NCBI GenBank assembly: GCA_001818315.1 | Contig: MHKF01000018.1 | Location: forward strand, 325-64,324 | DNA: 64,000 nucleotides | Direction of reading: 5' to 3' | Source: Candidatus Kerfeldbacteria bacterium RIFCSPLOWO2_02_FULL_42_19 | Lineage (GTDB): Bacteria > Patescibacteriota > Patescibacteriia > HO2-48-17 | Shown here: positions 5,946 to 42,260 of the stretch, one piece after another | Layout: each line of letters starts with the position of its first letter | Numbering within the stretch: the stretch's first letter is position 1 | Translations under genes and position numbers: made by a program | The notes under the pieces: generated by a model | Database searches by the model: none | The model's input: the letters and a program-made list of their open reading frames with translations, nothing else | Told to the model about the DNA's origin: nothing

Positions 5946-6092
5946 AGGTCTGTTCCCACCTACTTTTTTTGTGTAATGTGAAAGCAAAAGAGGAGGCGGA
6001 CGAGAGCTTACGCAGCACTAACAATGCACTGTGTACTGAGAAAGTGCTTATCTTCCTCCTGCTTTTATGATCAAAATTATTCAGCGGCAAGT
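5946..6092. repeat. MITE-like palindromic element, copy 1 (degenerate arms + internal palindrome)
   Basis: Arms ggtctgttcc... / ...attcagcggcaagtc. Core aaaagaggaggcgg...ctgagaaagtgc...cctcctgctttt. Confidence 0.5.
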
Positions 6093-7244
6093 CTATTTTT
6101 CGTTGAATTCGCCGAGGATCTTTTCGCTGATTTTAATAAGGTCTTCAACTGCCGCTTCTTGGTTCAACACATCGAAAGGTGAAAGAATGCTGATGTCTAC
6201 AACGAAGCGTCCTTGTGCGGATTGAATTTCCGCAAGTGTTTCTTGCGCTAACCCATCAGCTTCGCTATCAATAGATTCTGGAAGTTCTATTTCTGAGCTT
6301 TGTACCGATTCGTCAGCCGCAACCCCGGTTTTGAGTAATTCGCTTTGGTAGGCGCTTGCGAGTTCCGGTGTTTTGAATTCTAAAATCACAATTTCTATTG
6401 CTTCTTTAGGACGTTTATTGACTTGAAAACGCGCGAGTCCACCAGATTGAAAACCCTCGAACGTATCGTTTTCAAAATCACGTGAAGTGCCGAGCCAATC
6501 GCTTCCTTCAACTTTTGCTGTACCAAGATAAGTAGTGTCAGCGACGGTTTTTGGCAGTTTTCGCATAGCAATATTTTGTGGTTCGTTTGAAAAGCGTTCA
6601 AATCCATTCAGAACCCGTTTGATTCTCTCTAGTTGTTTTGCTGCAAGTTTCTCGGCAAATGGTAAGAGTTCTTTTTCTCCTTCATCAGCACTTGTAATAG
6701 CATTATTTCTATCAAAGACTTGGATTTTTGCCGCTACGGTCGCTTGTGTAAGGCGATACGTTACATTCGCTGGATCAAACTCATTTGCTTCTTGGAAATA
6801 TACAATGCTTGATTCGCCGTATTGTTTTTGGGGTGTTAATTTTGTTTCACCTTCAGATTTTACTGTAACGAAATTTTTTGCTTCTTCGCGCGAATTGAAA
6901 CTGACAATCGCATTGCCAGCAAAGATGTTGCCTGTTTTTCGATCAATAATTGCTCTTCCGATGACACTTTTAAACGGCGCTCCCTTTTCTTCTGGCTCCA
7001 TGTGGTCATTGAATTCAATTAACTGGGTACGAATCTCTCCTTGACTATCTGTTGCTTCAGCAATTTCTTTTTCTGTGAGTATCGCAAGCGCCCAGTCGCT
7101 ATCTTGAATTTTGCTTGTTTGTGGATTTTTCTGGAACCAAAAGTACAGTGCTACGGCGATGAGAATACCACCTGCTAAGCTGAGGGCGAATATGACGTAC
7201 CATTTTTTTAAAGCTGCTTGTGAGTATGTATTTTTTGTTGGCAT
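6093..7244 (-). CDS. Membrane-anchored hypothetical protein
   Basis: N-terminal TM 'YVIFALSLAGGILIAVALYFWF'. Acidic extracytoplasmic domain. The stop abuts a MITE-like repeat. Confidence 0.45.
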   Translation of the reverse strand: MPTKNTYSQAALKKWYVIFALSLAGGILIAVALYFWFQKNPQTSKIQDSDWALAILTEKEIAEATDSQGEIRTQLIEFNDHMEPEEKGAPFKSVIGRAIIDRKTGNIFAGNAIVSFNSREEAKNFVTVKSEGETKLTPQKQYGESSIVYFQEANEFDPANVTYRLTQATVAAKIQVFDRNNAITSADEGEKELLPFAEKLAAKQLERIKRVLNGFERFSNEPQNIAMRKLPKTVADTTYLGTAKVEGSDWLGTSRDFENDTFEGFQSGGLARFQVNKRPKEAIEIVILEFKTPELASAYQSELLKTGVAADESVQSSEIELPESIDSEADGLAQETLAEIQSAQGRFVVDISILSPFDVLNQEAAVEDLIKISEKILGEFNEK

Positions 7245-7312
7245 ATTTTGTATTATGAATTTTTATACTTTTTTCCCTACATTCTTCCTTAACGTAGGAT
7301 AATTTATTCTGT

Positions 7313-7930
7313 TTATTGTATTTTTAATGATTGAAGAATTTTTTCGCCCGTAGCGCTTTCCTCTGCATAATTATCGAGTTTCCCTGTAAATGAGATAATA
7401 TAGGCCTTGTTGTTTTTGACTGCCCATGCTTGTTTGATTTTTGTTTGAAAGTTCTTTCCGTCTTTTGTGAAGTCTTCCCCAGTTGCAGTATAGGTGAGTG
7501 TGTATCCCGGTACCCCATTGATTGTTGTATTTTTTGATTCGAGAATTTCTATCTCCCAATCGAGGATGTCGAGGTTTTCGAGAGCCGCTTCTGTATATTC
7601 GTCGAGTGTGACAGGATTCTCAGAGAGATCTTCCACTGTAAATGTCACATTCGTACCGTTTTCCATAGCAAAACCTACAATGCCTCCTTCTAATGCTTGT
7701 TGTTCCCAAGATGAAGGATATTCAAAACTTACACCATTCGCAGCGTCTTCGTATGTACTCCAAGTCTCTTTGGACGTGGATGTTGATGTCTTCTTTATGT
7801 CGCTATTTTGATTATTTTCACTTTCGTCGGCGATACTGAAGAGTTTATAAAAACCAATTACCAGCGCAATAATGATGACGATGATGCTGACTAGTTTTAT
7901 GAGTTTGTTTCGTTCCATTGGGGTATACAT
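7313..7930 (-). CDS. Membrane-anchored hypothetical protein
   Basis: N-terminal TM 'LVSIIVIIIALVIGFY', then a soluble domain. Confidence 0.45.
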   Translation of the reverse strand: MYTPMERNKLIKLVSIIVIIIALVIGFYKLFSIADESENNQNSDIKKTSTSTSKETWSTYEDAANGVSFEYPSSWEQQALEGGIVGFAMENGTNVTFTVEDLSENPVTLDEYTEAALENLDILDWEIEILESKNTTINGVPGYTLTYTATGEDFTKDGKNFQTKIKQAWAVKNNKAYIISFTGKLDNYAEESATGEKILQSLKIQ

Positions 7931-8198
7931 TTAAAGATAAATTTGAGTTTATGAAAATTTTCCGATCAGTCCGGCTGCTCCAAAAGACCTTGAATATATT
8001 TGATTCTTTGATTTTTTCTACTTTTGCTAGTATAGCACAATGAGTTTTTGTTGCATAACATATATTGTTTTTTTATTCGCAGATTGTTTTGCGCTTCACA
8101 TTGTAATTTTTTTTGTTTATACTCGTTGCTATAGACCGACAGTAAGAACACAATCTTTCTGATATTGTTCAAAAATAGGGAAGAAATGGAGGTGTAGG

Positions 8199-8561
8199 AT
8201 GTCAGAAAATTCTCGAAAGTTGCGTGTTAAAGTTTTGTACTATGCCGGTTGTTTGACAGACCAGATGTTGAGGGAGTACGATCTTGTACTGATTCAATCT
8301 GGCGTCGTCACGGGTCCTGCTCCTTATGGAGGAGCAGAATGGGGTCTGGTTCCAGCGTATTTGAAAGAAGGTGCGCTGCTGCCCGATGAAACAATCGTCA
8401 TAGCACAAGATCCTGTGCTCCTGCAGACACTTGTGCAGCATCTGGTTTCTCGAGTAAAGGAGTCTCAGTATTACTCTGCAGGGAGCTCATTCTCCGTCTT
8501 CATGAAGGCTGAAGAATTAGCAGGTTTTACCTCTCCAGCGTTTACACTGGAACTTCACTAA
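8199..8561 (+). CDS. Hypothetical small protein (stand-alone transcription unit)
   Basis: Strong RBS GGAGGTG 5 nt upstream of the ATG. Followed by a hairpin plus T-run terminator. Confidence 0.4.
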   Translation: MSENSRKLRVKVLYYAGCLTDQMLREYDLVLIQSGVVTGPAPYGGAEWGLVPAYLKEGALLPDETIVIAQDPVLLQTLVQHLVSRVKESQYYSAGSSFSVFMKAEELAGFTSPAFTLELH

Positions 8562-8573
8562 GTTCTTTGCTTA

Positions 8574-8606
8574 GGGCTTACCTTCGGGTAAGTCTTCGGC
8601 TTTTTT
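8574..8606 (+). terminator. Rho-independent terminator
   Basis: cttacc-ttcg-ggtaag stem-loop followed by tcttcggcTTTTTT. Confidence 0.5.
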
Positions 8607-8678
8607 GAGAGTAGAAAGAATCCTCTTTTGACATCCTACCAAAGCATTGTAGTATGAAAGAAAGAGTTTTTTGCTTCC

Positions 8679-9290
8679 ATGGCTATTCTTTTTGAACAAC
8701 TTGCTTTTTCAGAACAGATCAGTCTCCTTTTAATTCGATATGGTTTAATCGTTGTTTTTTTTGGCGCTCTTTTTTTTGGTGAGACGGTTATTTTAAGTGC
8801 TGCGTTCCTTTCTGCACAGGGCTTCTGGTCTATTATTTTTGTCTTTCTTCTTGCGTTTTTTGCCACCTTGCTTTCGGATTCCGTATGGTATTTGGTTGGC
8901 AAAAAATCGAATACTGCTTTCCAGAAATTTCGAGAACGCTACGGAGGACGTTTACCTTTGCGTTTTTTTTCACAACACCTGAGTCCGCCTCCGACGCACG
9001 CATTACTCTCTTTGTTGTTTATTAAATTTCTCTACGGCACCCGTATTCTGATGTTGTTGTATTTTGGAAGTCAAAAAGTTTCTTTTCGTTATTTCACTCT
9101 TTTAAATGCTGCGGGTACGTTTCTCTGGCTTGTCACTATTCTCCTTATCGGTTGGCTTGCGGGCCGTGGCTATGATGCTTTGGTACCTGATTTGCAACGA
9201 TTTCAGTATGTCTTTTTAACTCTCATTCTAACGGTGATTGTGATTAAGCTTTTTCTTTCATGGTTAGGAAAATTTCTTCTCAAAAAGTAA
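8679..9290 (+). CDS. DedA/VTT-family membrane protein (tentative)
   Basis: Polytopic. 'FFGALFFGETVILSAAFLSAQG' resembles the DedA/SNARE-associated motif. Confidence 0.4.
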   Translation: MAILFEQLAFSEQISLLLIRYGLIVVFFGALFFGETVILSAAFLSAQGFWSIIFVFLLAFFATLLSDSVWYLVGKKSNTAFQKFRERYGGRLPLRFFSQHLSPPPTHALLSLLFIKFLYGTRILMLLYFGSQKVSFRYFTLLNAAGTFLWLVTILLIGWLAGRGYDALVPDLQRFQYVFLTLILTVIVIKLFLSWLGKFLLKK

Positions 9291-10267
9291 CTGCGATTGT
9301 TCCTGCCTATAATGAAGCCGAACGCATCGGCGGAGTATTACGTGTACTTTCGGATCATTCTGTTTTTTCTGAGATAATCGTTGTTGATGATGGATCGTCT
9401 GATGTGACGCAATCGGTTGTTGCGCGTTATCCTGTACGGTATGTTCGGCACACAAGAAATTTTGGGAAAGCTCAGGCTATGGAAACGGGTGTGCGGTTTG
9501 CAACAAGTGAGGTTATATTTTTTTGCGATGCCGATATTTCCGGCCTGACGCACGCTATTATTGACGAAATTGTGAGGCCTGTATTGCATGGGCAGGTAGA
9601 AATGTTTATTGCGATGCGGAATCGCAAGGTGTATTTTTTGAAAACGTTGGTTGCTTTCGTCCCATTGTTAGGCGGGGAACGCGCGTTGACACGACGTTTA
9701 TGGCAGAGTGTTCCGGAGCACTATAAAAAGCGTTTTCGCATTGAGACCGCGCTGAATTTTTACGCGAAGTATTATGGCGCAGGCTTTAGGTATAAGTTAT
9801 TTCCAGGACTCTCGCAGAGTATTAAAGAACGGAAGTATGGAATTCGGATTGGACTTCAACAGCGAATGTTCCTTTTTTATGATGTTTTTGTTGCGATCAT
9901 GCGTCTGCAATTTACTGCATTGCCGAAAAATATGAAAACTATGCGCTTGATGTTTGGTTCTTTATTTTGGAGCTTTTTGGGAATTGCGGCAGGTATTATT
10001 ATTCTTCTTGTGACCAATTTTGGATCAGAGTTTTGGTTTGTGCGTTTCTTTTCAACGCAACTCCGAGCGATTGATTCTACTGTTGTGCAAAAGTTATTTT
10101 CTGTCGCGCGCCAACTTGGTCGTCAAACTTTGAGTGTTGTCGGTTGGATGATACTTGTGACGCACGGGATTGTATTTCTTGCGTCTTTGCAGCGTTTGCT
10201 TTTTTTACTGCGATCCGCTGGAATGCGTTTTATATCACTTTTTACCAAGGCAAAAATATTGCGCTAA
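9260..10267 (+). CDS. Family-2 glycosyltransferase with C-terminal TM segments (Dpm1-like)
   Basis: 'VTAIVPAYNEAERIGGVL', 'IIVVDDGSSD', 'FFCDADIS'. C-terminal hydrophobic helices. Confidence 0.7.
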   Translation: MVRKISSQKVTAIVPAYNEAERIGGVLRVLSDHSVFSEIIVVDDGSSDVTQSVVARYPVRYVRHTRNFGKAQAMETGVRFATSEVIFFCDADISGLTHAIIDEIVRPVLHGQVEMFIAMRNRKVYFLKTLVAFVPLLGGERALTRRLWQSVPEHYKKRFRIETALNFYAKYYGAGFRYKLFPGLSQSIKERKYGIRIGLQQRMFLFYDVFVAIMRLQFTALPKNMKTMRLMFGSLFWSFLGIAAGIIILLVTNFGSEFWFVRFFSTQLRAIDSTVVQKLFSVARQLGRQTLSVVGWMILVTHGIVFLASLQRLLFLLRSAGMRFISLFTKAKILR

Positions 10268-10289
10268 CTTCTTCGAAGCGGTTGTATCT

Positions 10290-16618: not shown

Positions 16619-16629
16619 GCAGTCTTATA

Positions 16630-16800
16630 GGGATTGTCACCAAATGCTATTTCTTGTGCAATGCGCATAGAAAAAGAGCTAGAAGACTCTCGCTTTCGAA
16701 GCACTGACAGTGCACAGTGTGCTGAGAAAGGAGAGTCTTCTGCCTCTTTTTCTAGGTCAAATTTTATTTTTACAGGTGCAAACGTATTCGGCTACAATCC
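16630..16800. repeat. MITE-like palindromic element, copy 2
   Basis: Arms GGGATTGTCACCAAATGC / aaacGTATTCGGCTACAATCC. Core ...acagtgcacagtgtgctgagaaaggagag.... Confidence 0.6.
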
Positions 16801-16801
16801 T

Positions 16802-17353
16802 TTATAAACGTTTTGGTCGAGATAAAGGATGATGTTCTGGCGCAAATTTTTGTCGCAATTTTTTTGAAACGAAAAAATGATAGCATAGGATTCCGAGGAG
16901 TACTCCAATAACGAAGAGTGTGACTAAAGAGATTATGGCCCGTTGTTTAGCGTCTTGATCTGCATGGACGATGAGGGGAATTTTTATGCCAGAGTTTGGT
17001 TCAAAATTTTCTGGATTTTTTGCTTGCGCTTTGATGGAAAGATGTGTACTCAAAGCACTGGCTCTTTTTGGCGTTACGGTAATGATTACTTTTTGATTTT
17101 TTTGTGGAAGCAGTTCTAGAGTACTTGGTGCGATGGAAATTCGATCTTGAAATTCATCCGCTTGGATAGTTATTAGTGCTGTTTGGTCCGAAGTATTAAA
17201 GACAGTGATCATACTTTCGGTAGGTTGATCTTGGGTTGCGGTGATTTCTATGTGAGACGGCGTAACTCCAACGCCAATAGCTTGGGCGATGTTTGGATGT
17301 ATTAAAAAATCACTGAATACGAGTACAAAAAATAGTTTAGTAAATATTTTCAT
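16802..17353 (-). CDS. Secreted protein with C-terminal TM anchor
   Basis: Signal peptide, beta-rich domain, C-terminal 'AIISLVTLFVIGVLLGILCYHFF' followed by basic residues. Confidence 0.45.
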   Translation of the reverse strand: MKIFTKLFFVLVFSDFLIHPNIAQAIGVGVTPSHIEITATQDQPTESMITVFNTSDQTALITIQADEFQDRISIAPSTLELLPQKNQKVIITVTPKRASALSTHLSIKAQAKNPENFEPNSGIKIPLIVHADQDAKQRAIISLVTLFVIGVLLGILCYHFFVSKKLRQKFAPEHHPLSRPKRL

Positions 17354-17356
17354 TGT

Positions 17357-19264
17357 TTATTGTGCTACTTGGGTTGCCCAAAATGTAAGATTACCTGTGT
17401 GCGCTCCTGCTTCCTGAAAGTTTTCCGGTACATTTAAGCCGATGCGAATTTCTTGCTGATTTTGCTTTCCAAGTCGCATTTCAAATGCCGACCAGAGTAA
17501 GTCGTTCAGTTTTAGAAACTGTTTCATAAGATTTGATCCCTCGACCTCAGGATTTACATCGATGTTGACATTTCCGGTGTTATTGATAGTCATCTGCTGT
17601 AGGGGCGCTGATGATCCCGGGGTAAGTTCACCAAAATTGATCGGGCCGCCCGTGACGGTGATGGAAATTTCTGGTTCAGGTTCTGGCTCTTGATTCTCAT
17701 CTTCGTTGTCATCATTATCGTTATTTTCATTTCCATCTTCTTCATTATCTTCAGGATTGGGAATCACAACACTTGCTGCGAGCGTAATACTTTCTGAAGG
17801 CGTTCCGACCGCAAGTGTTTCCATTCGAGAACGTACCATGCTTTGTTTTTCTGCAAAGATTTTAACGCTTCCAGATTCGGTGGGTGTATATGCTACAGCG
17901 CCATCTGCGTGCGTTGTCAATGTGTCGGTATCTGCGTGAATCGTGACCCCTGGTTCGAACTGCCAAGCGCTGCCATTAAAAATTTCACTCCTTATTGTGA
18001 TAGGTTGTTTCGGTATCGTTTTATTTGGTTCGATCAAAACTCGGAGCGGTTTCCATGTTGATTCGCCGAAATACCAAAGTACTTCATCACTTTCTTTGAG
18101 TTGATGGGCAGGCGCCGGAACTGTTCCGGGAATCCACTTCACAAGATAGAGCCAACCGGTGAGGTCGTGCGCCGCATCGTCATTGATACGCCGCAAGTAG
18201 GTTCCATTGAAATCAAGTTCGTAGGTATATCCGCAGGAAGCTGCAGCGCTTGTGATAATCTCCATTGGTGTGCGGGCTTGGATGTGGCCGGTGCAAATAT
18301 TTTTGGTTGCCCCTTCAATACGAAAGGGGATGTCGATATTTGGCAGCTCTATTACGCGTGTTGGTAACTTTTTTTGTCCGAGTGCGAGCGTTGCGAACGC
18401 GGTGTTTGCTTTGATGCCTTGCGGAATAGTGCTGACTTTCCACCAAAAATCACCTTCGCGTGTTTGCATGCTTTGGATAAAATCCAAAGGTGTTCCGAGT
18501 TGCGCGCGCCAAGTCTCGATCGATTCTTCGAGTGTCACAAGTGCAAGGACGACCCACGAGGTACTATCGGTGTTTGGTTCAGTGTCTTGGAATCCTACGA
18601 AACCGCCGGTTCGGTGTTGCTTTGTCCGGAGGAAATTTTTTGCTGTCTGAAGACTTGCGTGATTTTTTGGGATGTTACTCGCCCGCAAAGCGATGATTGC
18701 AGCAGCGGTATTATCAACGTCGCTCTCACCTCCATCAATGAGTGGAAAGCCGCCGTCCTGATTTTGATGCTGCAGAAGTGTGTTTGTGATATTTTGCATG
18801 ATTGCATCGGTTGGTTCGATACCCGCTGCTCTCAGGGCTATCATACCCCAGACATCATCGTTCAAGAGTCGCTGATCGCCGATGTGAGCATGATGATAAT
18901 AGTTGTTGAGAAATTCTTGGATGAGATTACGATCAGGTAATTTGTTGCGCGGATCGAAACCGAAAGCGGTGAGGGTCAGGATTTTTCGTGCGTAATCTGT
19001 TGCTTGGGTTTGAGGGAAGTTCTGGAGGCCGATACGTGTGACCTCTTCATTGATACGTTGCGTTGCGTCCAATCCGGCGATAGTGAATAGCGTCCAATCT
19101 ACAGTTGATGCGCCCGCAGTTTCTATCCATTGCGGACGTTTGGTTTGATCAATAAGAAAATTCAGTGCCTGCTGTTTACTTTCTTCTAGAGATTCAGCAT
19201 GCACCTCGTGCGTGTTAAGCAATGTCAATCCGAGTATGGAAATGAAAATGAGTATTTTTTTCAT
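17357..19264 (-). CDS. Secreted protein with prenyltransferase/squalene-oxidase-like (alpha/alpha-toroid) repeats and acidic low-complexity linker
   Basis: 'QDGGFPLIDGGESDVDNTAAAIIAL', 'RTGGFVGFQD...TSWVVLAL' repeats. 'EDNEEDGNENNDNDDNEDENQEPEPEPE'. Likely true start MKKILIFISILG (signal peptide) at 19264; the track ORF extends to 19405. Confidence 0.55.
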   Translation of the reverse strand: MKKILIFISILGLTLLNTHEVHAESLEESKQQALNFLIDQTKRPQWIETAGASTVDWTLFTIAGLDATQRINEEVTRIGLQNFPQTQATDYARKILTLTAFGFDPRNKLPDRNLIQEFLNNYYHHAHIGDQRLLNDDVWGMIALRAAGIEPTDAIMQNITNTLLQHQNQDGGFPLIDGGESDVDNTAAAIIALRASNIPKNHASLQTAKNFLRTKQHRTGGFVGFQDTEPNTDSTSWVVLALVTLEESIETWRAQLGTPLDFIQSMQTREGDFWWKVSTIPQGIKANTAFATLALGQKKLPTRVIELPNIDIPFRIEGATKNICTGHIQARTPMEIITSAAASCGYTYELDFNGTYLRRINDDAAHDLTGWLYLVKWIPGTVPAPAHQLKESDEVLWYFGESTWKPLRVLIEPNKTIPKQPITIRSEIFNGSAWQFEPGVTIHADTDTLTTHADGAVAYTPTESGSVKIFAEKQSMVRSRMETLAVGTPSESITLAASVVIPNPEDNEEDGNENNDNDDNEDENQEPEPEPEISITVTGGPINFGELTPGSSAPLQQMTINNTGNVNIDVNPEVEGSNLMKQFLKLNDLLWSAFEMRLGKQNQQEIRIGLNVPENFQEAGAHTGNLTFWATQVAQ

Positions 19265-19338
19265 AGGAAATTTTGAGAAGTTTTCTGAAGAGCGTCGCTT
19301 TTTTTGCAACGCTCTCCTTAAAAATCCCGTTTGTGCTT

Positions 19339-19674
19339 TTAACATGGCGACTGTGAGACTGTGAAAGTCTCTATAATGATTTCCCCAGTCATGAAATCGC
19401 GCCATTCGATAGTATCCCCCTCGTACACTTCTACTTCCTCTACCGGAATTTGTTCTTGCACGTTATTGAGGAAATAAACCAAATTCGTTGATTTATATTC
19501 ACCAAGTCCTACGACTTTTCTGCCGCATGGCGAAGTCCAAAATTCTTCGGTGATCGCGATTCGTTCGACCGTGACGTCCGCTACAGTTCGTGATTGTGGA
19601 GTAGGGCATGTTTCGTTACCGAGGAGTACTCCCAATGATGTAAGGCAGACATGTAAGAATCCTCTTCTTTTCAT
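19339..19674 (-). CDS. Small secreted hypothetical protein
   Basis: Signal-like 'MKRRGFLHVCLTSLGVLLG'. First gene of the minus-strand secreted operon. Confidence 0.35.
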   Translation of the reverse strand: MKRRGFLHVCLTSLGVLLGNETCPTPQSRTVADVTVERIAITEEFWTSPCGRKVVGLGEYKSTNLVYFLNNVQEQIPVEEVEVYEGDTIEWRDFMTGEIIIETFTVSQSPC

Positions 19675-20042
19675 GTTTCCTTGAATACCTTGGCGGTCGT
19701 TTCTTCCATCATGCATCTGCTGTCTTTTTTGCATTTTTTTTCACTCCTTTTGTGAAAATGAAAAACCGCCTTGGCGGCGGCATCACTGTTTCCATTTTTT
19801 GAGAGACAATTTCGTTCGATTTATACAGGATGTTTCTTGCCGCCCTCCATTCCACGAGAGGGGGAAGTTTTATGAGTCACAAGATCAAGTGTCTGGCTTA
19901 TACTCGGGGCATCGCAAAGTTACTCGCCGAATATTTACAGTTGCGGGACAGCGGGGGAATTACACCCACCTTCCTTTTTCTTGAGACTGTTTGTGAAGGA
20001 CGTTATTTACACTGTATCATGAAGTATTGAACCGAGGCAAAT

Positions 20043-20204
20043 GGGACTGTCGCCGACTACCCTTTCTTATGCAATGTACAAAACAAAAGAGGAGGATAAC
20101 TCTCCTTTCTCAGCACACTGTGCAGTGTCAGTGCTTCGAAAGCGAGAGTTATCCTCCTCTTTTGTTTTGTGTTTTGAACAAGAAATACATTCGGTGACAG
20201 TTCC
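20043..20204. repeat. MITE-like palindromic element, copy 3
   Basis: Arms GGGACTGTCGCCGACTACC / ACATTCGGTGACAGTTCC. Core aaaagaggaggataactctcctttctcagcacactgtgcagtg...cctcctctttt. Confidence 0.65.
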
Positions 20205-23864: not shown

Positions 23865-23887
23865 TACAACATGTACCTTCTCTTAAA

Positions 23888-24069
23888 GACTGTCGCCGCA
23901 TACGCTTTTGTTTGTAAAAATATATTTGATCATAGAAAAAAGAGGAGGAAGACTATAACTTTCGAAGTACTAACAATACACAGTGTGCTGAGAAAGGAGA
24001 GTCTTCCTCCTCTTTTTTCTTTAAATAAACTTCACTTTTCAAATACAAGAGCGCATTCGGCAACAGCCC
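23888..24069. repeat. MITE-like palindromic element, copy 4 (near-identical to copy 5)
   Basis: About 150 bp share all but 1-2 positions with 24867-25050. Right arm gcgcattcggcaacagccc overlaps the SGNH hydrolase stop. Confidence 0.7.
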
Positions 24070-24881
24070 TAGAGTTGAATCACTTTCATTAATTCCTTGA
24101 ACCAGAGGGCATACCCCGCACTGCTCGGATGCAAACCGTCAGGCGCATAGAATTTTTGTGGCTTTTGTGCAAACGGATCATTCGTTCTCTCGTGCAACAG
24201 ATCCACAAAAATCACTGCGTTTTCCTGCGCCTGCTTGGATAAGACGTCGCGTACTTTTTTTGATCGTCTTTCAAATAACCAGCGGACTGCCTGCGGAATC
24301 ATCGGCGCGGATCCAAGATTTCCTGCTGGCATGAGGATGACAGCACGACTTCGCTTTTTACTTTCTTCAAGTATTGTATTTGTATCATCTGTGAGATTTT
24401 GGAGATTGGTAAAATGCAACGCGTCGTTTCCACCGAGCATCACCATGAGGATATCGTATGATTCTTTTATTTGTGTAATGCTTTGCAATCCGTCGTGTAT
24501 TCGATCGCCGCTCGTTGAAAAATTGGTAATTTCTGCTTCCGGAAAGATGTTGCCTAGTCGTCCGGCTATTGAATCGGACGGACTGTTTGAACCTATCCCA
24601 ATGCCGGTACTGTCACCGATGATGAGTATACGAAGCGTTGGTTGCTTCAGTTTTTGTTCGTAGGGTAGCGTTCTTGCGATGAGAATTTTAGAAATTGTTG
24701 CGAATTTTTTTACTTTGACGATTTCTAATGTTGTAATTGCGATCGCAACAACCGCAAGGCCTAATATCAGATATCGAAAAATTTTCATACATTTTGTATA
24801 GACTTGTTCTTGCAAAATTTTTTGTGCCTGTATTATATCACAAGTACGCCGAGGCTTTGTTTTTGTGGGCTTTCGCCACAT
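24069..24881 (-). CDS. SGNH/GDSL-family hydrolase (secreted or membrane-anchored)
   Basis: 'ILIIGDSTG' (GDSx), 'GGNDA', 'DGLHP'. Likely start MKIFRYLILGLAVV at about 24787. Both gene ends abut near-identical repeat copies. Confidence 0.8.
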   Translation of the reverse strand: MWRKPTKTKPRRTCDIIQAQKILQEQVYTKCMKIFRYLILGLAVVAIAITTLEIVKVKKFATISKILIARTLPYEQKLKQPTLRILIIGDSTGIGIGSNSPSDSIAGRLGNIFPEAEITNFSTSGDRIHDGLQSITQIKESYDILMVMLGGNDALHFTNLQNLTDDTNTILEESKKRSRAVILMPAGNLGSAPMIPQAVRWLFERRSKKVRDVLSKQAQENAVIFVDLLHERTNDPFAQKPQKFYAPDGLHPSSAGYALWFKELMKVIQL

Positions 24882-25050
24882 ACGCTTTTGTTTGTAAAAA
24901 TATATTTGATCATAGAAAAAAGAGGAGGAAGACTATAACTTTCGAAGTACTAACAATACACAGTGTGCTGAGAAAGGAGAGTCTTCCTCCTCTTTTTTCT
25001 TTAAATAAACTTCATTTTTCAAATACAAAAGCGTATGCGGCCACAGCCCC
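24867..25050. repeat. MITE-like palindromic element, copy 5
   Basis: Direct repeat of copy 4 on the other side of the SGNH hydrolase gene. Confidence 0.7.
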
Positions 25051-25123
25051 CTGAAAATGCCTTTGTTGCTTCGACAGTTTGTGTTATACTGACACAATTC
25101 TTTCGATTATTCATTTTTGTTTT

Positions 25124-26237: not shown

Positions 26238-26353
26238 GGGACTGTCGCCGAATACCATAGCTTATTTTAGTCAAATAAACCTCCTCGCTTTTCAATTTTT
26301 TCGCTCAAAATTTTCATTTTTCACAGACGAAAGCGTATTCGGCGACAGTCCCT
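26238..26353. repeat. MITE-like palindromic element, copy 6 (arms with a different interior)
   Basis: GGGACTGTCGCCGAATACC ... GAAAGCGTATTCGGCGACAGTCCC. Fills the gap between convergent M24 peptidase and DUF43 genes and contains the DUF43 stop. Confidence 0.7.
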
Positions 26354-27083
26354 GAGTATAGAAAGCGGTTCGATGTTGGTCGAGTTGGCGAATGTTGATG
26401 CGCGATGTAGGTTGTAGAATATACAGATCGCTCTTTGAACCGATACTTTTTGCTTCGTAATACGCATTGAATCCCCGTATTTTTTCTTGAATAATCAACC
26501 CGAGGTCGGTAATAATTTTTTGAATTTTTAATCCTCGCTCGGTACTTTGATCAGTATATCCGTAACAAAGGAGATAATATTTTTGCGCGAGGAGTTTTGG
26601 ATTTTTTCGCGCTTTGTTTGTTCCTTTTCCTATGCTTGCTTCGAGCGCGCGAAGAAGCCACGTATGTACCGCTTGTGGCGTATAGGGTGGATCGAAAAAA
26701 ATAATATCATAACCGCACAGCTGTGATCTTTGTAGCGGATTTCGGAGGTCGTGTTCAATGCATTGTATGTCAAGCTTTTCATTGGTAGCTATATGTTGAA
26801 TATAGCCGAGGAGTTTTTTATCTATATCAATAACGGTGATAGTTTGTGTTTTGTATAACAGCGCAAGCGCGATAGAAGTAACATCATCGTCGCCTAAAAA
26901 AAGTATTCTCTTTTTTGCAAAATGCGTGAGTTCAGCGATACGTTGTACTCTTTTGAGAACCGTGTGTTCTTTTGCGAAGAATTGATCGAGCTCACGTTGA
27001 GGTTTTGGTCGCTCGCATTTGTAACGATTGAGAAGAATTGTAAACTCTGTACAAGCAAATTGCGAGAGAGGTTGATGAGCCAT
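26292..27083 (-). CDS. DUF43-like SAM-dependent methyltransferase-fold protein (possible polyamine aminopropyltransferase)
   Basis: 'ILFLGDDDVTSIALAL', 'VIDIDKKLL', 'IIFFDPPYT'. The last ~20 codons and the stop lie inside a MITE-like repeat. Confidence 0.4.
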   Translation of the reverse strand: MAHQPLSQFACTEFTILLNRYKCERPKPQRELDQFFAKEHTVLKRVQRIAELTHFAKKRILFLGDDDVTSIALALLYKTQTITVIDIDKKLLGYIQHIATNEKLDIQCIEHDLRNPLQRSQLCGYDIIFFDPPYTPQAVHTWLLRALEASIGKGTNKARKNPKLLAQKYYLLCYGYTDQSTERGLKIQKIITDLGLIIQEKIRGFNAYYEAKSIGSKSDLYILQPTSRINIRQLDQHRTAFYTQGLSPNTLSSVKNENFERKN

Positions 27084-27380: not shown

Positions 27381-28013
27381 TTATTTCAGTTGCGCCTTTT
27401 TGTGATATCTTTTTGTCGTCGCGTGTGAAGCGAGGAAGGGAAAAATGATACTTAAGAAACTCATGAATGCGACGATAGTGAAAACGAGTTGGAAACCAAA
27501 GACTTCTGCTATTATTCCACCGAGGAATCCAGTGATTCCGGCTGCGATTCCAAGTATAGTACTATCTAATGCCCATTCTGTTCCTTCTTTTCCTTTATCG
27601 ATGTGACGTGTAAAAATTGCGCCCCAGGCGGGGATGATTAATGCAAAACCGAGCGCCGCAATAAACTGTACAATGTAGAGATGCAAGGGTTTCGTTATGC
27701 TTATAAAAAGCAAAGAAGCAATACCCACAATGATCTGTCCAAGTATGATCGCTCTGTAATCATCTTGTTCGCCTGGGTTCTTATCGAGTACGTGCGCGAT
27801 TGGAATTTGTAGTATTGATTTTGAGATCCAGTAGATAGCCGCTGCAATTCCGACCATCGCCGCACTTCCACCGGGTATTTTTTTTGTAATAAAAATCGCA
27901 AAAATCGGTTCAATCAAACCCCACGCTGCAAAGAGAATGAAATCTGATGCAATGAGATATCGTATGGTGTTATTCAGAGAAAAACGAAGCATATTTTTAT
28001 CTTTAGAACTCAT
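27381..28013 (-). CDS. Polytopic membrane protein, function unknown
   Basis: About 6 TM helices. Confidence 0.45.
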   Translation of the reverse strand: MSSKDKNMLRFSLNNTIRYLIASDFILFAAWGLIEPIFAIFITKKIPGGSAAMVGIAAAIYWISKSILQIPIAHVLDKNPGEQDDYRAIILGQIIVGIASLLFISITKPLHLYIVQFIAALGFALIIPAWGAIFTRHIDKGKEGTEWALDSTILGIAAGITGFLGGIIAEVFGFQLVFTIVAFMSFLSIIFPFLASHATTKRYHKKAQLK

Positions 28014-28099
28014 CTACAAGTCCGCTCATTCATTACAGACTTCGTAGATTGTATGTTATACTTTCTGTGTAAAATTTTTATACGAAAGGAGGGGTGCAT

Positions 28100-28162
28100 A
28101 TGTCAGAAGAGACATGTTCAGGCTGCGGGAATCCTATGAGCTCTTGCACCTGCAGCAACTAG
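28100..28162 (+). CDS. Cys-rich micro-protein, 20 aa (MSEETCSGCGNPMSSCTCSN)
   Basis: AAGGAGGGG RBS 7 nt upstream of the ATG. Immediately followed by a hairpin. Not in the ORF track because it is under 60 aa. Confidence 0.4.
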   Translation: MSEETCSGCGNPMSSCTCSN

Positions 28163-28171
28163 TCAACGACG

Positions 28172-28216
28172 AAATCCGCGGTTGATATGATCGCGGATTT
28201 TGCATCTTTCTTTTTT
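28172..28216. terminator. Bidirectional terminator hairpin between convergent genes
   Basis: aaatccgcg-gttgatatgat-cgcggattt followed by a T-rich tract. Confidence 0.45.
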
Positions 28217-28848
28217 CATTGCTCAACACATATACCGTTTTGACATGCTTCATTTGCACGACACTTTCGGGCATGTTCGGCAACAACTACTTCGCCTTTG
28301 AGGCCGCAATCATATTGTACAAGTTCTCCGTTTCGACACGTATCTTCTTGATAGGCGCCAGTTGCTGGATTACCCACTTGCCCTTTTTCGCGTCGTTTAT
28401 TGAAAGGATCCGTATCTTTACAATCTTTTCCCGGGACATATTGTCCGGCACAAAAGGCTTCATCCCCATCCCAGGCGCATTCCTCGTTGCCCTTACAATG
28501 CGTGAGTACAGTATCTTCTTGTCCTCTTGTACAGATTCTTTCACCTACTCTTTTTGGTCCGCCACAAAAATCATTGTAGGTTGTACGAATTTTGCGAACT
28601 CGATCTTCCACTCGTACGAATCCTGGCACATATTTATCCGCTCCACCGTCGGAATCCGAACATAATATTCCGGCGTCTGTGTTTGGAATTCTGCCGCCGA
28701 TGAGTGCCGCCGCGATGGTGCTAAAGACCGACGTAAGTCCTATAATAACGCTCACAAAGACTATGACTTTTGGGAGGAGACCTATTTGATATTTTGTTTT
28801 TGTGAGTGTTTGCTGATTTTTTTCTTTGATTATTTTTCTTTTTGGCAT
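28216..28848 (-). CDS. Cys-rich secreted/membrane-anchored protein
   Basis: N-terminal TM. At least 16 Cys in the mature domain ('CSDSDGG...CGGP...CTRG...CKGNEECAWDGDEAFCAG...'). Confidence 0.5.
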   Translation of the reverse strand: MPKRKIIKEKNQQTLTKTKYQIGLLPKVIVFVSVIIGLTSVFSTIAAALIGGRIPNTDAGILCSDSDGGADKYVPGFVRVEDRVRKIRTTYNDFCGGPKRVGERICTRGQEDTVLTHCKGNEECAWDGDEAFCAGQYVPGKDCKDTDPFNKRREKGQVGNPATGAYQEDTCRNGELVQYDCGLKGEVVVAEHARKCRANEACQNGICVEQ

Positions 28849-28857
28849 ATTTTTTTT

Positions 28858-28892
28858 TGTTAACTTGATAATTCCGCGATCGCTTGCTGCGC
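28858..28892 (+). promoter_or_regulatory. Conserved 35-nt noncoding motif, copy 2
   Basis: tgttaacttgataattccgcgatcgcttgctgcg. Sits 10 nt from the start codon of the minus-strand Cys-rich gene. Confidence 0.3.
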
Positions 28893-37261: not shown

Positions 37262-37310
37262 GAGTTCCAAGTCTTGCGGTTATGACATGACTTGGAACTT
37301 GTTGTTTTTA
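37262..37310 (+). terminator. Rho-independent terminator after udk
   Basis: gagttccaagtc-ttgcggttatgacat-gacttggaactt followed by gttgttttta. Confidence 0.5.
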
Positions 37311-37364
37311 GGGTCTGTCGCTGAATGCGATTTCGTAGGCGAAAGCGTATTCAGCGACAGACCC
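37311..37364. repeat. MITE-like element, copy 7 (minimal: two arms only)
   Basis: GGGTCTGTCGCTGAATGCG-atttcgtaggc-GAAAGCGTATTCAGCGACAGACCC. Confidence 0.65.
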
Positions 37365-37482
37365 TAAAATTTTTGACAGCTTTTTGACCTTTTGCTATGG
37401 TAGTGCGTTCAGCGTGCTGGTTTTTACCTTTTTGTTGGGTAAACACGTTGAATATTTGACAATCTAACAATGGAGAGGTCAC

Positions 37483-38268: not shown

Positions 38269-38483
38269 TCGCTGTCGCCCTTTCGTTCCTTCCATGTTTT
38301 TTTCTCACCTTCAATCTCGATTTTGCCAAACTTGTTTTTGACATTGCTCCTTCCTTTCTCATGATTTTCTTCCTCTTCCTTTGTGCGGCCCTGCATTGTG
38401 CGGGGTCGTTTCTTTTCCAGCGTACGCAAGTTGTGCTATAAAAGAAAAGGCTGTCTAAAAGCCTCATATTTTATATTTTTCTC

Positions 38484-39608
38484 ATGAAATTTGGTCACAA
38501 GAAAAAAGTTATTGTTGCCATGTCCGGAGGCGTGGATTCGTCTGTGGCGGCTTTGCTTTTGCAGCAACAAGGGTATGATGTGACGGGAGTGTTTATGAAA
38601 AATTGGTCCGGTACTTCCCTCGGTCTCACAGGAGTTGCCGCGCGTCAGTGGGAAAATCAGTGTCCTTGGGAGCGCGATGCGTATGATGTACGTCGGGTTT
38701 GTCAACGTTTACATATCCCGTACTACACTTTTAATTTTGAAAAAGAATACAAAGATGCGGTACTTGATTATTTTTTTCGGGAATACCGCGCTGGTCGTAC
38801 CCCGAATCCTGATATTATGTGCAATAAGGAAATCAAGTTTAAGGTATTTTTAGAAAAAGCATTGTCCCTCGGTGTCGATGCTATTGCTACAGGGCACTAT
38901 GCGCGTTGTGTTGTGCGTGAGTCAAAGTTCGAAGTGCATATTCCGCATGATCGCGCGAAAGATCAAACTTACTTTTTGTATACCCTGACGCAAGCACAAC
39001 TTGCGCATACTCTGTTTCCGCTTGCGGATTACACAAAATCGGAAGTACGTGCGCTTGCGCGGCAGACGAATCTTCCGACGCATAATAAACCAGACAGTCA
39101 GGGGATTTGCTTTGTGGGGGAAGTTGATATACGCAAGTTTCTTGAAACGACGATTGCACGAACTCCGGGCGCGATTGTGAGTGTTGATAATGAAGTGATC
39201 GGAGTACATCAAGGTCTCGCGTTTTATACGATTGGTCAGCGTGAAGGTTTGAATATTGATCGCGGTGGACCGTGGTATGTTGTGGATAAACGAGTTGATC
39301 GTAATAAACTCATTGTAGCGTGTGGTGCTCATCATAAGGCGCTTTTTTCGCACGGACTTCTTGCAACTCAAGCGCATTGGATTTCCCTTGAGCCCACGCA
39401 ATTTCCTTTGCATTGTCTTGCGAGGATACGATATCGTCAGACTCTTGAATTAGCGACGGTGCAGAAATCAAAAGAGTCTGAAGAGCCTTCGCGTCTTGAC
39501 GTACAATTTTCCACGCCACAACGTGCGATTACCCCCGGTCAATCCATTGTTTTTTATGACGGTGATCACATGCTCGGTGGAGCAGTCATAGAGCAATCTC
39601 TTCACTGA
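38484..39608 (+). CDS. mnmA: tRNA-specific 2-thiouridylase
   Basis: PP-loop 'VIVAMSGGVDSSVAA', 'NPDIMCN', 'DSQGICFVGE'. Confidence 0.9.
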   Translation: MKFGHKKKVIVAMSGGVDSSVAALLLQQQGYDVTGVFMKNWSGTSLGLTGVAARQWENQCPWERDAYDVRRVCQRLHIPYYTFNFEKEYKDAVLDYFFREYRAGRTPNPDIMCNKEIKFKVFLEKALSLGVDAIATGHYARCVVRESKFEVHIPHDRAKDQTYFLYTLTQAQLAHTLFPLADYTKSEVRALARQTNLPTHNKPDSQGICFVGEVDIRKFLETTIARTPGAIVSVDNEVIGVHQGLAFYTIGQREGLNIDRGGPWYVVDKRVDRNKLIVACGAHHKALFSHGLLATQAHWISLEPTQFPLHCLARIRYRQTLELATVQKSKESEEPSRLDVQFSTPQRAITPGQSIVFYDGDHMLGGAVIEQSLH

Positions 39609-39665
39609 CGGGTTTGTCGCCGAATACCATTTCTGCTGCAATTGCAGCATTTCGTCCAGAATCGC
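39609..39665. repeat. MITE-like element, copy 8 (left arm + partial interior only)
   Basis: GGGTTTGTCGCCGAATACCATTTCTGCTGCAAT... matches the left 45 bp of copy 9. No right arm found. Confidence 0.5.
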
Positions 39666-40095
39666 TCTCTCCAACAACTTTGAGTTTGATGCGCGTGATT
39701 ATTTCCATGTGCATCGCCTGAAGGTTTTTTTCTTGGATCGGGCATTCTACGCTGGTACCTTCGCGAAACGACCTCTTGGTGTTGGGCCGCTGATAGGCGT
39801 CAATCACACGTTCGGCGCATTTCCTGTAGGAATTGCATTCGCTGGACCTCTCTACCGCTGGACAGATAGTACCTTTGGTTTCTTTGAACTGTCGCTTATA
39901 ATTCGGTTTTGAGCTATTATTAAAGCACAAGACCTAAATGCAAGCATTGCTTTATAAGTAAAAGCGTTTCTTGGGGTGCTACGAGTTGCAAGTACGAAAC
40001 TTGTGCCGTAGTATCCCATTTTTTTATTCAGCATTTTGTCAATTTCTGTATTGCTTCACTTTGCCAAGAATTTTTTTTTCGCTATACTCAGTTCT

Positions 40096-41949
40096 ATGCA
40101 TACTCATGAAATACGTCGAAAATACCTTGCGTTTTTTCAGAAGCAGGGTCACGCGATTATTCCTTCGGCGCCCCTTATTCCTGAGCATGATCCGACAACG
40201 TTATTTACGGGTTCTGGAATGCAGCCGATTTTGCCGTATTTATTAGGTGCACCGCATCCCGAAGGCACGCGACTTACGAATTCCCAGAAGTGTTTTCGCG
40301 CTGAAGATATTCCAGAAGTAGGTGACAATCGTCACACGACATTTTTTGAAATGCTTGGTAATTGGTCACTCGGCGATTATTTTCAAAAGGAACAGATCAC
40401 TTGGATTTTCACATTTCTTACGCAAGAAATCGGGCTTGATCCGAAACGTTTATACGTGTCGGTTTTTCGTGGAAAAGAAACGATTGGCGTGTCACGAGAT
40501 GACGTTTCAATACAATTATGGCAGGAACAGTTTCGCCGCGTTGGTACCAGGGCAAAAGCAGTAGATGATTCATGGCACAAAGGATTACAAGGCGGGCACA
40601 TTTTTTACTATGACGAGAAAAAAAATTGGTGGTCGCGTTCAGGAGTGCCGGAAAAAATGCCTGTTGGTGAGCCGGGAGGGCCGGATTCCGAAATGTTTTG
40701 GGATTTTGGTGCCGAGTGGCAATTGCATGAAAATTCAATTTTTAAAGATCAGGTGTGCCACGTGAATTGTGATTGCGGTCGATTTATGGAGATCGGCAAC
40801 AATGTTTTTATGACGTATCTCCGAACTCGGGATGGATTTACGCCGCTGCCGAAGAAAAATGTGGATTTCGGCGGAGGCTTGGAGCGCATAGCTGCTGCTG
40901 TCAATAATAATCCTGATATCTTTCGCATTGATATTTTTTCCGAGGCTCGTAATACTCTTGAACAATTGTCAGGTATTTCGTACGGTTCAGCAACTCAAGC
41001 GACTAAAGTCTTCCGAATTATTCTCGATCACATACGCGCTGCAACTTTCCTGATAGCTGACGGCGTGTACCCTTCCAATAAAGATCAAGGTTATTTTGTG
41101 CGGCGACTGCTTCGTCGCGCTTTGCAGTATGCTTCTCAAATTCACATTGAAAAGCAATGTGCTGCCCTGCTTGTAGAAAATTTTATTGCATTGTATGAAC
41201 GAGTTTACCCAGAGCTTGTCCGAAACAAAACAAGAATCGTTCAAGAAATTGTTCAAGAGGAAGAAAAATTTCGTAAGACACTTACGCGCGGACTCAAAGT
41301 TTTTTCACAGATTCGAGACAACGGCAAAATTTCTGGTGAACAGGCGTTCGATTTATTTACTACGTATGGATTTCCGTTTGAGATGACACAGGAACTTGCT
41401 CAAGCAGCAGGTATTGTTGTGGATACCCAAGGTTTTCATGAAGCCATGCAGAAGCATCAGGAGCTTTCGCGCACAGGCGCTTCGCAAAAATTTTCTGGAG
41501 GGCTTGCTGATCATTCTCAGTTCACAGTTCGAGGACACACCGCAACGCATTTACTCCATCAAGCTTTGCGAAAAGTCTTAGGTCCACATGTTGTGCAAAA
41601 AGGGAGTAATATTACGCCGCAGCGCATCCGATTCGATTTTTCGCATCCTACAAAACTTTCAGATTCAGAGTTGCAAGCTGTCGAGCGTATAGTGAATGAA
41701 GAAATTCGTCGGGATTTACCTGTGAGTTTTGAAGTTTTGAGTGTTGCAGAAGCAAAAAAGAAGGGTGCTATGGGTGTTTTTGATGAGCGTTACGGTAGTA
41801 AAGTGAAGGTCTATCGCATCGGTGATTTTTCGTACGAAATTTGTGGAGGACCGCATGTCGCTCATACTACTGAAGTAGGGAAGTTTCGGATCGTGAAAGA
41901 AGAAGCGTGTTCCGCCGGAGTACGGCGCATCAAAGCAGTTTTGACTTGA
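40096..41949 (+). CDS. alaS: Alanine--tRNA ligase (catalytic + editing domains, no C-Ala domain)
   Basis: 'HTTFFEMLGNWSLGDYFK', editing 'HTATHLLHQAL' and 'CGGPHV'. Ends about 30 aa after the editing core. ATG at 40096 preferred over the track start. Confidence 0.85.
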   Translation: MHTHEIRRKYLAFFQKQGHAIIPSAPLIPEHDPTTLFTGSGMQPILPYLLGAPHPEGTRLTNSQKCFRAEDIPEVGDNRHTTFFEMLGNWSLGDYFQKEQITWIFTFLTQEIGLDPKRLYVSVFRGKETIGVSRDDVSIQLWQEQFRRVGTRAKAVDDSWHKGLQGGHIFYYDEKKNWWSRSGVPEKMPVGEPGGPDSEMFWDFGAEWQLHENSIFKDQVCHVNCDCGRFMEIGNNVFMTYLRTRDGFTPLPKKNVDFGGGLERIAAAVNNNPDIFRIDIFSEARNTLEQLSGISYGSATQATKVFRIILDHIRAATFLIADGVYPSNKDQGYFVRRLLRRALQYASQIHIEKQCAALLVENFIALYERVYPELVRNKTRIVQEIVQEEEKFRKTLTRGLKVFSQIRDNGKISGEQAFDLFTTYGFPFEMTQELAQAAGIVVDTQGFHEAMQKHQELSRTGASQKFSGGLADHSQFTVRGHTATHLLHQALRKVLGPHVVQKGSNITPQRIRFDFSHPTKLSDSELQAVERIVNEEIRRDLPVSFEVLSVAEAKKKGAMGVFDERYGSKVKVYRIGDFSYEICGGPHVAHTTEVGKFRIVKEEACSAGVRRIKAVLT

Positions 41950-42098
41950 CGAAATTTCCACGATCATTATAATGTGATTATAGATTCAGCACTTCACGAA
42001 TTTGTGTTTGTCCTCATGAGAACGGTTTTATAAGGCAGTCTTTGTATCTTCCTTATCTGCCGTGGTTCCGTGAGGTTCCAAAGGCATTTTTATTTATC

Positions 42099-42260
42099 GG
42101 GTCTGTCGCCGAATACCATTTCTGCTGCAATCGTAGAATTTCGGTCAGCATCGTTTCAAAATTTTTCGGCTTATATTCCATATAAACCTCAAAATTTATT
42201 CAGCGATTCTGTCACGAAATTCTACGATTTCGTGACGAAAGCGTATTCGGCGACAGACCC
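42099..42260. repeat. MITE-like palindromic element, copy 9
   Basis: GGGTCTGTCGCCGAATACCATTTCTGCTGCAATCG ... GAAAGCGTATTCGGCGACAGACCC. Lies between alaS and infA. Confidence 0.7.

Follow-up and report, generated by a model that had tools for sequence, protein, structure and literature searches.

Nine palindromic repeats in a Candidatus Kerfeldbacteria contig belong to a foldback MITE family of Patescibacteria that is very probably moved in trans

Near-palindromic repeats of ~100–200 bp, such as Correia/NEMIS, RUP, ERIC and RPE, occur in many intergenic copies and can add codons, stop codons, promoters and hairpins to their surroundings. Repetitive extragenic palindromic sequences (REPs) measure 20–40 nt, carry no target-site duplications (TSDs) and go together with RAYT Y1 transposases. 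Patescibacteria, with genomes of ~1 Mb, are commonly called poor in mobile DNA. Among short elements mobilised in trans, TIMEs generate A+T-rich duplications of 5 bp (sometimes 6 bp), and two copies can bracket host genes (PMC4133298). Here, we examined a stretch of 64,000 nucleotides (contig MHKF01000018.1, GC 42%; hereafter the window) from Candidatus Kerfeldbacteria, a member of the Patescibacteria or Candidate Phyla Radiation (CPR), in which nine palindromic repeats, designated copies A to I, share 18-nt inverted arms. Our analysis indicates that these repeats are very probably copies of a non-autonomous DNA transposon—a miniature inverted-repeat transposable element (MITE)—that is widespread in Patescibacteria and moved in trans.

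A preliminary description of this DNA had proposed about nine copies with 18-bp inverted arms in a reduced-genome host, and both statements hold. With up to three mismatches allowed, the arm GGGRYTGTCGCCGAATAC (18 nt) matches the window 13 times against 0.09 matches expected, and none of 100 shuffled sequences reached 13. The matches pair as inverted repeats at 16630/16801, 20043/20204, 23886/24070, 24867/25050, 26238/26352, 37311/37364 and 42099/42260; together with a decayed pair (5946/6094) and a lone arm (39610), they make up eight pairs and one half element, packed into 36 kb. An nhmmer profile of the canonical element revealed no extra copies in the window and none past 42.3 kb. The family is not confined to the window: the same arms bound elements, mostly of 160–164 bp, in ~70 other low-GC contigs, and the copies recur in same-species assemblies. 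Window proteins are matched exactly on groundwater-metagenome contigs and on GCA_001818335.1 (MHKG01), and NCBI lists the transposase with which the window opens under Candidatus Kerfeldbacteria bacterium RIFCSPHIGHO2_02_FULL.

The wider sample comprised a genome set, in which one genome per species was scanned for the exact arm (55 loci), and a metagenome set obtained by an arm scan (at least 119 loci); all pooled counts of elements and loci rest on the matches listed. Paired-arm elements were pooled from the window, the genome contigs and the metagenome contigs (87 elements in all), and 25 non-redundant canonical copies were aligned (alignment A1) for the study of anatomy and translations.

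The evidence for transposition comes from the borders of these elements. Exact 5-bp direct repeats flank 37 of the 87; none is longer, and a control shifted by 3 nt gave 0/87—a clear answer to the check for TSDs that had been proposed. A+T makes up 91% of the duplicated pentamers, compared with 60% of the host loci; position 2 tends to be T, and positions 3–4 tend to be A. Moreover, one metagenome-assembled genome (MAG) contains a filled and an empty site, TACAA-MITE-TACAA at locus L018 and a single TACAA at L055, with flanks 92% identical; L045 and L062 form a second, more diverged pair of this kind. Because the TSDs and the filled/empty site show insertion by transposition, the family is a genuine MITE and not a REP or bacterial interspersed mosaic element (BIME), the alternative that the preliminary description had set beside its MITE-like reading. 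Generic features of a MITE that are present here include small size, terminal inverted repeats (TIRs), a TSD of fixed length, no conserved open reading frame (ORF) and multiple copies per genome.

The following route would account for these copies. A transposase supplied in trans, probably of the DDE type, would recognise the element at both ends by its conserved terminal 18 nt (GGGACTGTCGCCGAATRC) and by the adjoining ~30 nt that co-vary; insertion into A+T-rich DNA would proceed through a 5-bp staggered cut, the repair of which would leave the 5-bp direct repeat. The canonical element is a 160–164-bp foldback, and the window contains further forms of it in which the core was probably replaced (A–E), the element shortened (F) or reduced to near arms-only form (G), or a half element left (H). 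Presumably neutral for the host, copies persist just between the genes of compact genomes, incidentally providing stop codons, C-terminal codons and long hairpins.

The aligned copies define the anatomy of the element. Across the 25 sequences, the terminal 18 nt are almost invariant and the two ends co-vary to ~49 nt, with 96.7% of cells paired; sliding the partner by 1–3 columns lowers the pairing to 36–52%. Pairs changed on both sides amount to 13/36, as against 6.5 ± 1.6 in shuffles (0/500). A short central hairpin is retained in nearly all 25 copies despite different stems, e.g., GGTTTAGC/GCTAAGCC, GGTTTATAT/ATATAAGCC, TAATGT/ACATTA and CGATGT/ATATCG. Since the halves co-vary and the central stems are varied, the element is a foldback over its whole length. 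The left subterminal sequence (GCTTTCGT...) differs from the right one (CCATTTCTGC...), and the element thus has an orientation; read in this orientation, mismatches between the halves are G:T rather than A:C in a ratio of 256:110, though the genomic orientation of copies is random. Sizes range from 36 to 235 bp among the 87 elements, with a sharp mode at 161–163 bp.

The element is too short to encode a transposase, and no conserved ORF lies inside it—whichever of the three frames examined is read, the majority of the 25 diverse copies contain stops. A small protein, e.g., MEYKPKNFETMLTEILRLQQKWYSATDP on the minus strand of copy I, might be read from the GAGG-N7-ATG and 42-codon ORF of that copy and from the similar look of some copies' translations. 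However, stops interrupt that frame in most of the 25 copies, no frame is open throughout and the resemblance lies at the DNA level, which leaves a coding role effectively refuted and scarcely credible.

All copies listed in the preliminary description were located, with the corrections that the start given as 23888 lies at 23886, that copy A is badly decayed and that copy H amounts to no more than 70 bp from the right-hand side of an element. Its division into five copies with an inner palindrome and others with a different or no interior is likewise borne out: the palindrome (AAAAAGAGGAGG...CCTCCTCTTTTT, ~81 nt) is found in copies A, B, C (inverted), D and E, and the arms are modular here as in other genomes. 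The proposed folding check gave long, stable hairpins for copies B–G and I, with dG from −37 to −89 kcal/mol and z from −6 to −15 (z-scores taken against mononucleotide shuffles). The copies are as follows.

Copy A, 5946..6094, plus strand: decayed GAGGAGG core, between convergent genes; whole fold no better than shuffles (z −1.3/−1.5).
Copy B, 16630..16801, plus strand: 172 bp, GAGGAGG core; dG −67.5, z −7.1.
Copy C, 20043..20204, minus strand: 162 bp, GAGGAGG core, inverted relative to B, D and E; dG −89.4, z −12.9.
Copy D, 23886..24070, plus strand: 185 bp, GAGGAGG core; dG −71, z −9.8.
Copy E, 24867..25050, plus strand: 184 bp, GAGGAGG core, in direct orientation with D; dG −83.5, z −15.4.
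Copy F, 26238..26352, minus strand: 115 bp, shortened canonical type with perfect arms (18/18); dG −37.5/−47.2, z −6.4/−9.7.
Copy G, 37311..37364, no strand assigned: 54 bp, near arms-only, two arms around a short GCGATTTCGTAGGCGAAAGC centre; dG −41.2, z −10.9.
Copy H, 39610..39679, minus strand: half element, the right-hand 70 bp of the canonical form.
Copy I, 42099..42260, minus strand: full canonical 162-bp element between alaS and infA; dG −76.8, z −13.9.

Several of these copies are closely interwoven with neighbouring genes, and six adjoin stop codons. Copy A lies between the VKOR gene (stop at 5945) and a minus-strand 383-aa ORF, whose stop (6093–6095) overlaps the arm end; its left arm agrees at 12/18 positions (by-eye reading), its core (5985–6065) is 60% identical to the reference copy and its flanks show no TSD. 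Copy B separates two convergent genes, one for an HGSNAT-like acyltransferase and the other for a 183-aa Ig-like protein, and has an exact 5-bp TSD, TTATA (16625–16629 and 16802–16806); the TAA stop of the minus-strand Ig-like gene falls within the right-hand duplication. Copy C, between divergent units, lies 23 nt upstream of a cobalamin riboswitch (19867–20019, minus strand) and occupies the expected promoter site of that unit. Its flanks, CAAAT/AAATA, contain a direct repeat of 4 bases, which becomes 5 when the right end is placed one base further in. The riboswitch (34.1 bits, above the gathering score) heads an apparent operon at 16802–20019 on the minus strand, with an unusual B12-regulated cargo: a 131-aa ORF that has no match in Pfam, a 682-aa prenyltransferase/terpene-cyclase-like protein and the 183-aa Ig-like protein.

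Copies D and E (spacing 980) bracket a GDSL-lipase gene (24069–24881, minus strand), the stop codon of which (24069–24071) overlaps the right arm of D; the ATG of its longest ORF lies inside the left arm of E, and neither copy has a TSD. Downstream of E, the ORF of an M24 peptidase starts at 25079; the protein is recorded elsewhere with 359 aa, which suggests a true start ~26 codons inside this ORF. Its stop lies 1 nt ahead of the left arm of copy F, and the final 60 nt of the BpsA_C-like gene on the other side (26292–27083, minus strand) consist of copy F sequence. Copy F matches nhmmer profile positions 1–162 in minus orientation (E 2.5e-10), and its flanks (TTAAT/TGAGT) form no TSD. Copy G, with arms 93% complementary, is found between tandem genes, one uridine kinase-like and the other a 261-aa ORF. 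Copy H begins 1 nt past the mnmA stop codon, matches profile positions 97–162 (E 9.8e-09) and is 88% identical to the corresponding part of copy I; the ORFs overlapping it are not conserved genes. Copy I (nhmmer E 6e-38) aligns at 68–85% with elements of Magasanikbacteria, Parcubacteria and Patescibacteria MAG contigs, and its flanks, TTATC/TCATC, agree at 4/5 bases. The adjacent infA ORF (42266–42658, plus strand; 130 aa) has a serine-rich, low-complexity N-terminal extension beginning at the MITE arm, and the true infA start is probably much further downstream.

The GAGGAGG-type copies retain the left-type and right-type subterminal sequences of the family, and it is the ~81-nt core that differs. 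The preliminary description had called the elements nested, with a second, internal ~90-bp palindrome enclosed by the arms in these five; taken literally, this would mean two elements, an independent palindromic one having inserted into an arm-bounded MITE. The GAGGAGG core is indeed a self-contained hairpin, and nesting does occur elsewhere: in other Patescibacteria contigs, GC-rich perfect palindromes (e.g., CTGCCTGCCGGCAGGCAG) sit in the MITE central loop (L001, ~7187–7331; L017, 1052–1286; L067, ~150–320), one copy thus reaching 235 bp. This palindrome is a second small palindromic element targeting the MITE, and these other genomes offer a case of true nesting. Against the same explanation for the window, the GAGGAGG core was found without arms neither in the window nor in 196 loci and is confined to same-species contigs; moreover, the canonical core is not split in two but absent, and the GAGGAGG core lacks flanking duplications. 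We consider nesting in the window quite improbable, and read the GAGGAGG core as a putative lineage-specific core replacement.

Beyond the window, the low-GC loci of the genome scan belong mostly to MAGs labelled Parcubacteria, Falkowbacteria, Magasanikbacteria, Azambacteria or Patescibacteria. Paired arms were present at 72/104 low-GC loci, as against 3/70 loci with a GC of at least 0.5 (these three all at 51%); the high-GC loci otherwise hold single arms, which in the genome scan are about as many as the chance 18-mer matches estimated for a collection of such size. Metagenome loci split by GC in the same way among the matches listed. The unclassified MAG JAZDNE01 supplies 25 of the 55 genome loci, several with two or more arm pairs, and has many arms at contig ends, as expected of a high-copy repeat; some MAGs hold dozens of near-identical copies. 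In other genomes, the arms also bound unrelated interiors and shortened forms, and forms of 36–62 bp, with little beyond the two arms, account for 11/87 elements. Such near arms-only palindromes (L110, 12747–12782; L154, 564–599; L136, 898–934; and 37311–37364 of the window) may be foldback deletion products or junctions of abutted ends. Four loci with typical copies (L009, L013, L035 and L043; L013 with a GC of 34%), one of the copies directly after tuf, come from MAGs labelled 'uncultured Gammaproteobacteria'; unless these MAGs are mislabelled, the family crosses phyla. The plasmid collection returned one weak partial arm match (E ~1), within a transporter gene of a Paracoccus plasmid, and the viral contigs only three arm matches, all in high-GC contigs.

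The placement of the copies bears on what they do for their hosts. Outside long ORFs (at least 150 aa) lie 83/87 elements, but the earlier statement that copies sit almost exclusively at gene ends goes too far: elements face 5' ends as often as 3' ends, the former on 52 sides and the latter on 48 (87 copies). Orientation relative to the neighbours shows no preference (13/17 and 17/16; 61 copies). An explanation in which the host retains the hairpin for a function of its own (terminating transcription in both directions, stabilising mRNA 3' ends or acting as another structured RNA), REP/BIME-like and with transposition secondary, could invoke the very stable folds on both strands, the stop codons adjoined in the window, the compensatory changes along the whole foldback with their G:T excess over A:C, and the A-run/stem/T-run symmetry of the GAGGAGG core, with small terminator-like hairpins called within copies C, D and E. 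Yet the TSDs and the filled/empty site bespeak insertion by transposition, sites resembling terminators or promoters are no more frequent than in shuffles, Rfam yielded sub-threshold hairpin look-alikes only (none at or above the gathering score), and co-variation of the arms is equally expected if both ends fit one transposase. With no bias towards 3' or 5' ends or in orientation, a selected terminator or RNA role, as the preliminary description had envisaged, is not supported, though an individual copy might still have one; maintenance for the host is very unlikely. Most simply, the copies represent a selfish element that a compact genome tolerates solely between its genes, its effects on gene ends being incidental; the position outside long ORFs and the lack of bias are what purifying selection on such insertions would leave.

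The cognate transposase with matching TIRs that had been anticipated was sought by clustering ORFs (first 55 loci), among the ORFs beside unpaired arms and within over-spaced arm pairs (viral and metagenome loci), and none was found. The large ORFs beside arms are housekeeping genes (NrdD, FBA, Lgt, PilB, UvrB and Ile/Val-tRNA synthetases), and two sets of ~700–1050-aa ORFs met in this search proved to be NrdD and Ile/Val-tRNA synthetases. The window opens with an IS1182-family insertion sequence (59–1356, reaching upstream beyond the window; right inverted repeat at ~1336–1356), whose transposase ORF (59..1276; NF033551, 287 bits) has a frameshifted N-terminus compared with 453-aa homologues. 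Just downstream, an ORF at 1420..1785 on the plus strand encodes an IS200/IS605-type Y1 transposase (NF033573, 100.8 bits), which scores 24.7 bits against the REP-associated RAYT model, below the cutoff of 80.

An IS1182/IS5-type insertion sequence, like the one that opens the window, is one candidate for the source or the mobiliser of the MITE; in its favour, an IS1182-family transposase gene is present in this very window. Homologues of it are abundant, some of them named Patescibacteria, and stem from groundwater samples that also yield MITE copies; the inverted repeats (CAGACTGTCCGAGAACTC, established from sister contigs and a Patescibacteria homologue) have the core GACTGTC...CGA.AA in common with the arm (10–11/18). 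However, the terminal dinucleotides differ (CA versus GG), no TSD is visible at the IS1182 copies read, the window copy is frameshifted, and tblastn with 120 IS1182 homologues detected none in 180 arm-bearing loci among the matches listed. The window IS1182 is thus unconvincing as a mobiliser, and an origin of this type is unlikely. We also observed that the DNA upstream of the window IS1182 differs among same-species assemblies (L181/L184 versus L182/L183), which suggests rearrangement or strain polymorphism. Copies of a Patescibacteria IS1182 homologue at L188 (1240–1400) and L189 (1590–1700) lie in the middle of a ~40-nt palindrome beside a tRNA gene, an arrangement that points to insertion targeted at hairpins and recalls IS1111 in QMITE2.

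A second candidate source is the Tn3 family, with its ~1000-aa transposase, long inverted repeats of ~38–49 nt and 5-bp A+T-rich duplications, from which the MITE could derive in a TIME/E622-like manner. The combination of GGG(G) ends, a 5-bp A+T-rich duplication and long inverted repeats presumably fits this family best. Co-variation to ~49 nt is unusually long for the TIRs of insertion sequences, and the direct copies D and E bracket a gene like TIME-COMP. The Tn3 inverted repeat, whose exact sequence occurs in over 5000 plasmids (more than 5000 matches), agrees with the arm tip at 12/18 positions with a 1-nt offset, a score equalled by 2–5 of 2000 shuffles. However, the likeness ends at ~12 nt and comes to 14–16/37 overall, with no inner TAAG and with GGG in place of GGGG, so that the element lacks the canonical repeat. 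The IS26 end agrees with the arm at 9–11/18, and the Tn3, IS1182 and IS26 ends match the tip about equally; the tip motif therefore does not discriminate between DDE families. No Tn3 transposase was present in the window or, among the matches listed, in the arm-bearing loci retrieved, and the D/E composite has no TSD. Finally, a 5-bp A+T-rich TSD is the product of TIMEs and Tn3-family transposons, but the copy number here is high and TIMEs are usually single-copy, a trait ascribed to transposition immunity (PMC4133298). Derivation from Tn3 is doubtful on this balance, though less so than an IS1182 origin.

The reading of the nine repeats as a MITE moved in trans has to be weighed against several results that speak the other way. 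Among ~100 low-GC arm-bearing loci (of the matches listed), no arm pair encloses a transposase, and the only transposase genes of the window, the frameshifted IS1182-family gene and the IS200-like Y1 gene, both lack matching ends. An exact TSD occurs in the window only at copy B, with 4/5 bases at C and I and none at the other copies. Moreover, co-variation across the entire foldback and the G:T excess could fit selection on a single-stranded hairpin, since recognition of the TIRs alone needs neither.

The scarcity of exact TSDs also tells against the recent activity in this genome that the preliminary description had proposed, as does the divergence of the GAGGAGG-type copies, which are mutually 62–75% identical except for D and E (94–96%); most window copies are, by this measure, apparently old. 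The unit formed by D, the GDSL-lipase gene and E is composite-like, but it has no duplication, nor has either copy, and mobilisation of the lipase gene explains it no better than local transposition or gene conversion would. Independent same-species assemblies show the same gene order and copies, or contig breaks at the copies. The closest database homologue of the flanking M24 peptidase is 48% identical, so that no close relatives are available for an empty-site comparison.

The 18-nt arms are identical at 18/18 positions across candidate phyla while the interiors diverge. This identity, the G:T excess and the recurrent near arms-only forms would be compatible with an unusual transposase or with an intermediate in the form of a single-stranded hairpin. 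Tentatively, and with considerable doubt, one may go further: the copies could belong to a pan-Patescibacteria foldback MITE superfamily with termini identical across several candidate phyla, whose mover is not bounded by such termini (a host-resident or domesticated enzyme, a phage- or episome-borne one, or a new family). Compensatory evolution would then reflect a single-stranded hairpin intermediate and not just recognition of two ends by a protein, and the element would mark DNA exchange among CPR lineages, possibly including the four Gammaproteobacteria-labelled MAGs.

For the MITE family as a whole, the TSDs, the near-identical copies and the termini conserved across candidate phyla suggest that transposition has been active and recurrent in the radiation. 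The element explains some assembly breaks in CPR MAGs, since contigs end in it, and the arm together with a 5-bp TSD offers a simple marker for insertions, strain variation and possible horizontal transfer. It also matters for annotation, as neighbouring genes owe some of their stop codons, C-terminal residues and start codons to the element.

Other parts of the window are worth recording in their own right. A large surface-polysaccharide cluster (46581–62171), with a flippase, GT4/GT2 glycosyltransferases, a Wzy-like ligase, an ABC ATPase and four tandem ABC-2 membrane paralogues (50255–53642), contains no MITE copies. A 38-nt direct repeat, 87% identical and not related to the MITE, occurs at 3513–3550 (start of a SET-domain gene) and 28854–28891 (intergenic), 25 kb apart. 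On the minus strand at 27381–28848, two adjoining 210-aa ORFs, one with a half-length MFS_1 match and the other without a Pfam hit, may represent a split or decayed transporter gene.

Compared with described systems, the kind of element is well known, and this family appears undescribed: full-text searches returned no paper on MITEs in Patescibacteria or the CPR and none with the arm sequence, and classical foldback MITEs from Patescibacteria were not described in the literature searched. TIME1–4, IS101 and E622 resemble it in being short and non-coding with long terminal inverted repeats. TIMEs measure 262 bp, carry the canonical 38-bp Tn3 inverted repeat and are usually single-copy in Proteobacteria near Tn3 transposases; unlike them, the present family is ~162 bp long, Tn3-like over ~12 nt and numerous in Patescibacteria, with no Tn3 transposase seen. 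QMITE2 of Coxiella burnetii is likewise palindromic, with TIRs and a length of 150–190 bp; it has direct repeats of 7–11 bp, a GTAG REP core targeted by IS1111 and short relatives in alphaproteobacteria, and by its description the present family, with a 5-bp TSD and other hosts, is set apart from it. Identity with the Coxiella elements QMITE1/QMITE2, which the palindromic repeats and the GC of 42% might suggest, was in fact rejected, as the window belongs to Candidatus Kerfeldbacteria and the arm matches come from MAGs of Patescibacteria. The classical foldback MITEs differ in their TIRs, TSDs (e.g., TA in Correia and RUP) and hosts. Finally, the family shares with REPs and BIMEs an intergenic position, hairpin formation and high copy number; what distinguishes it, besides a window Y1 transposase that falls below the RAYT cutoff, is the possession of clear TSDs.

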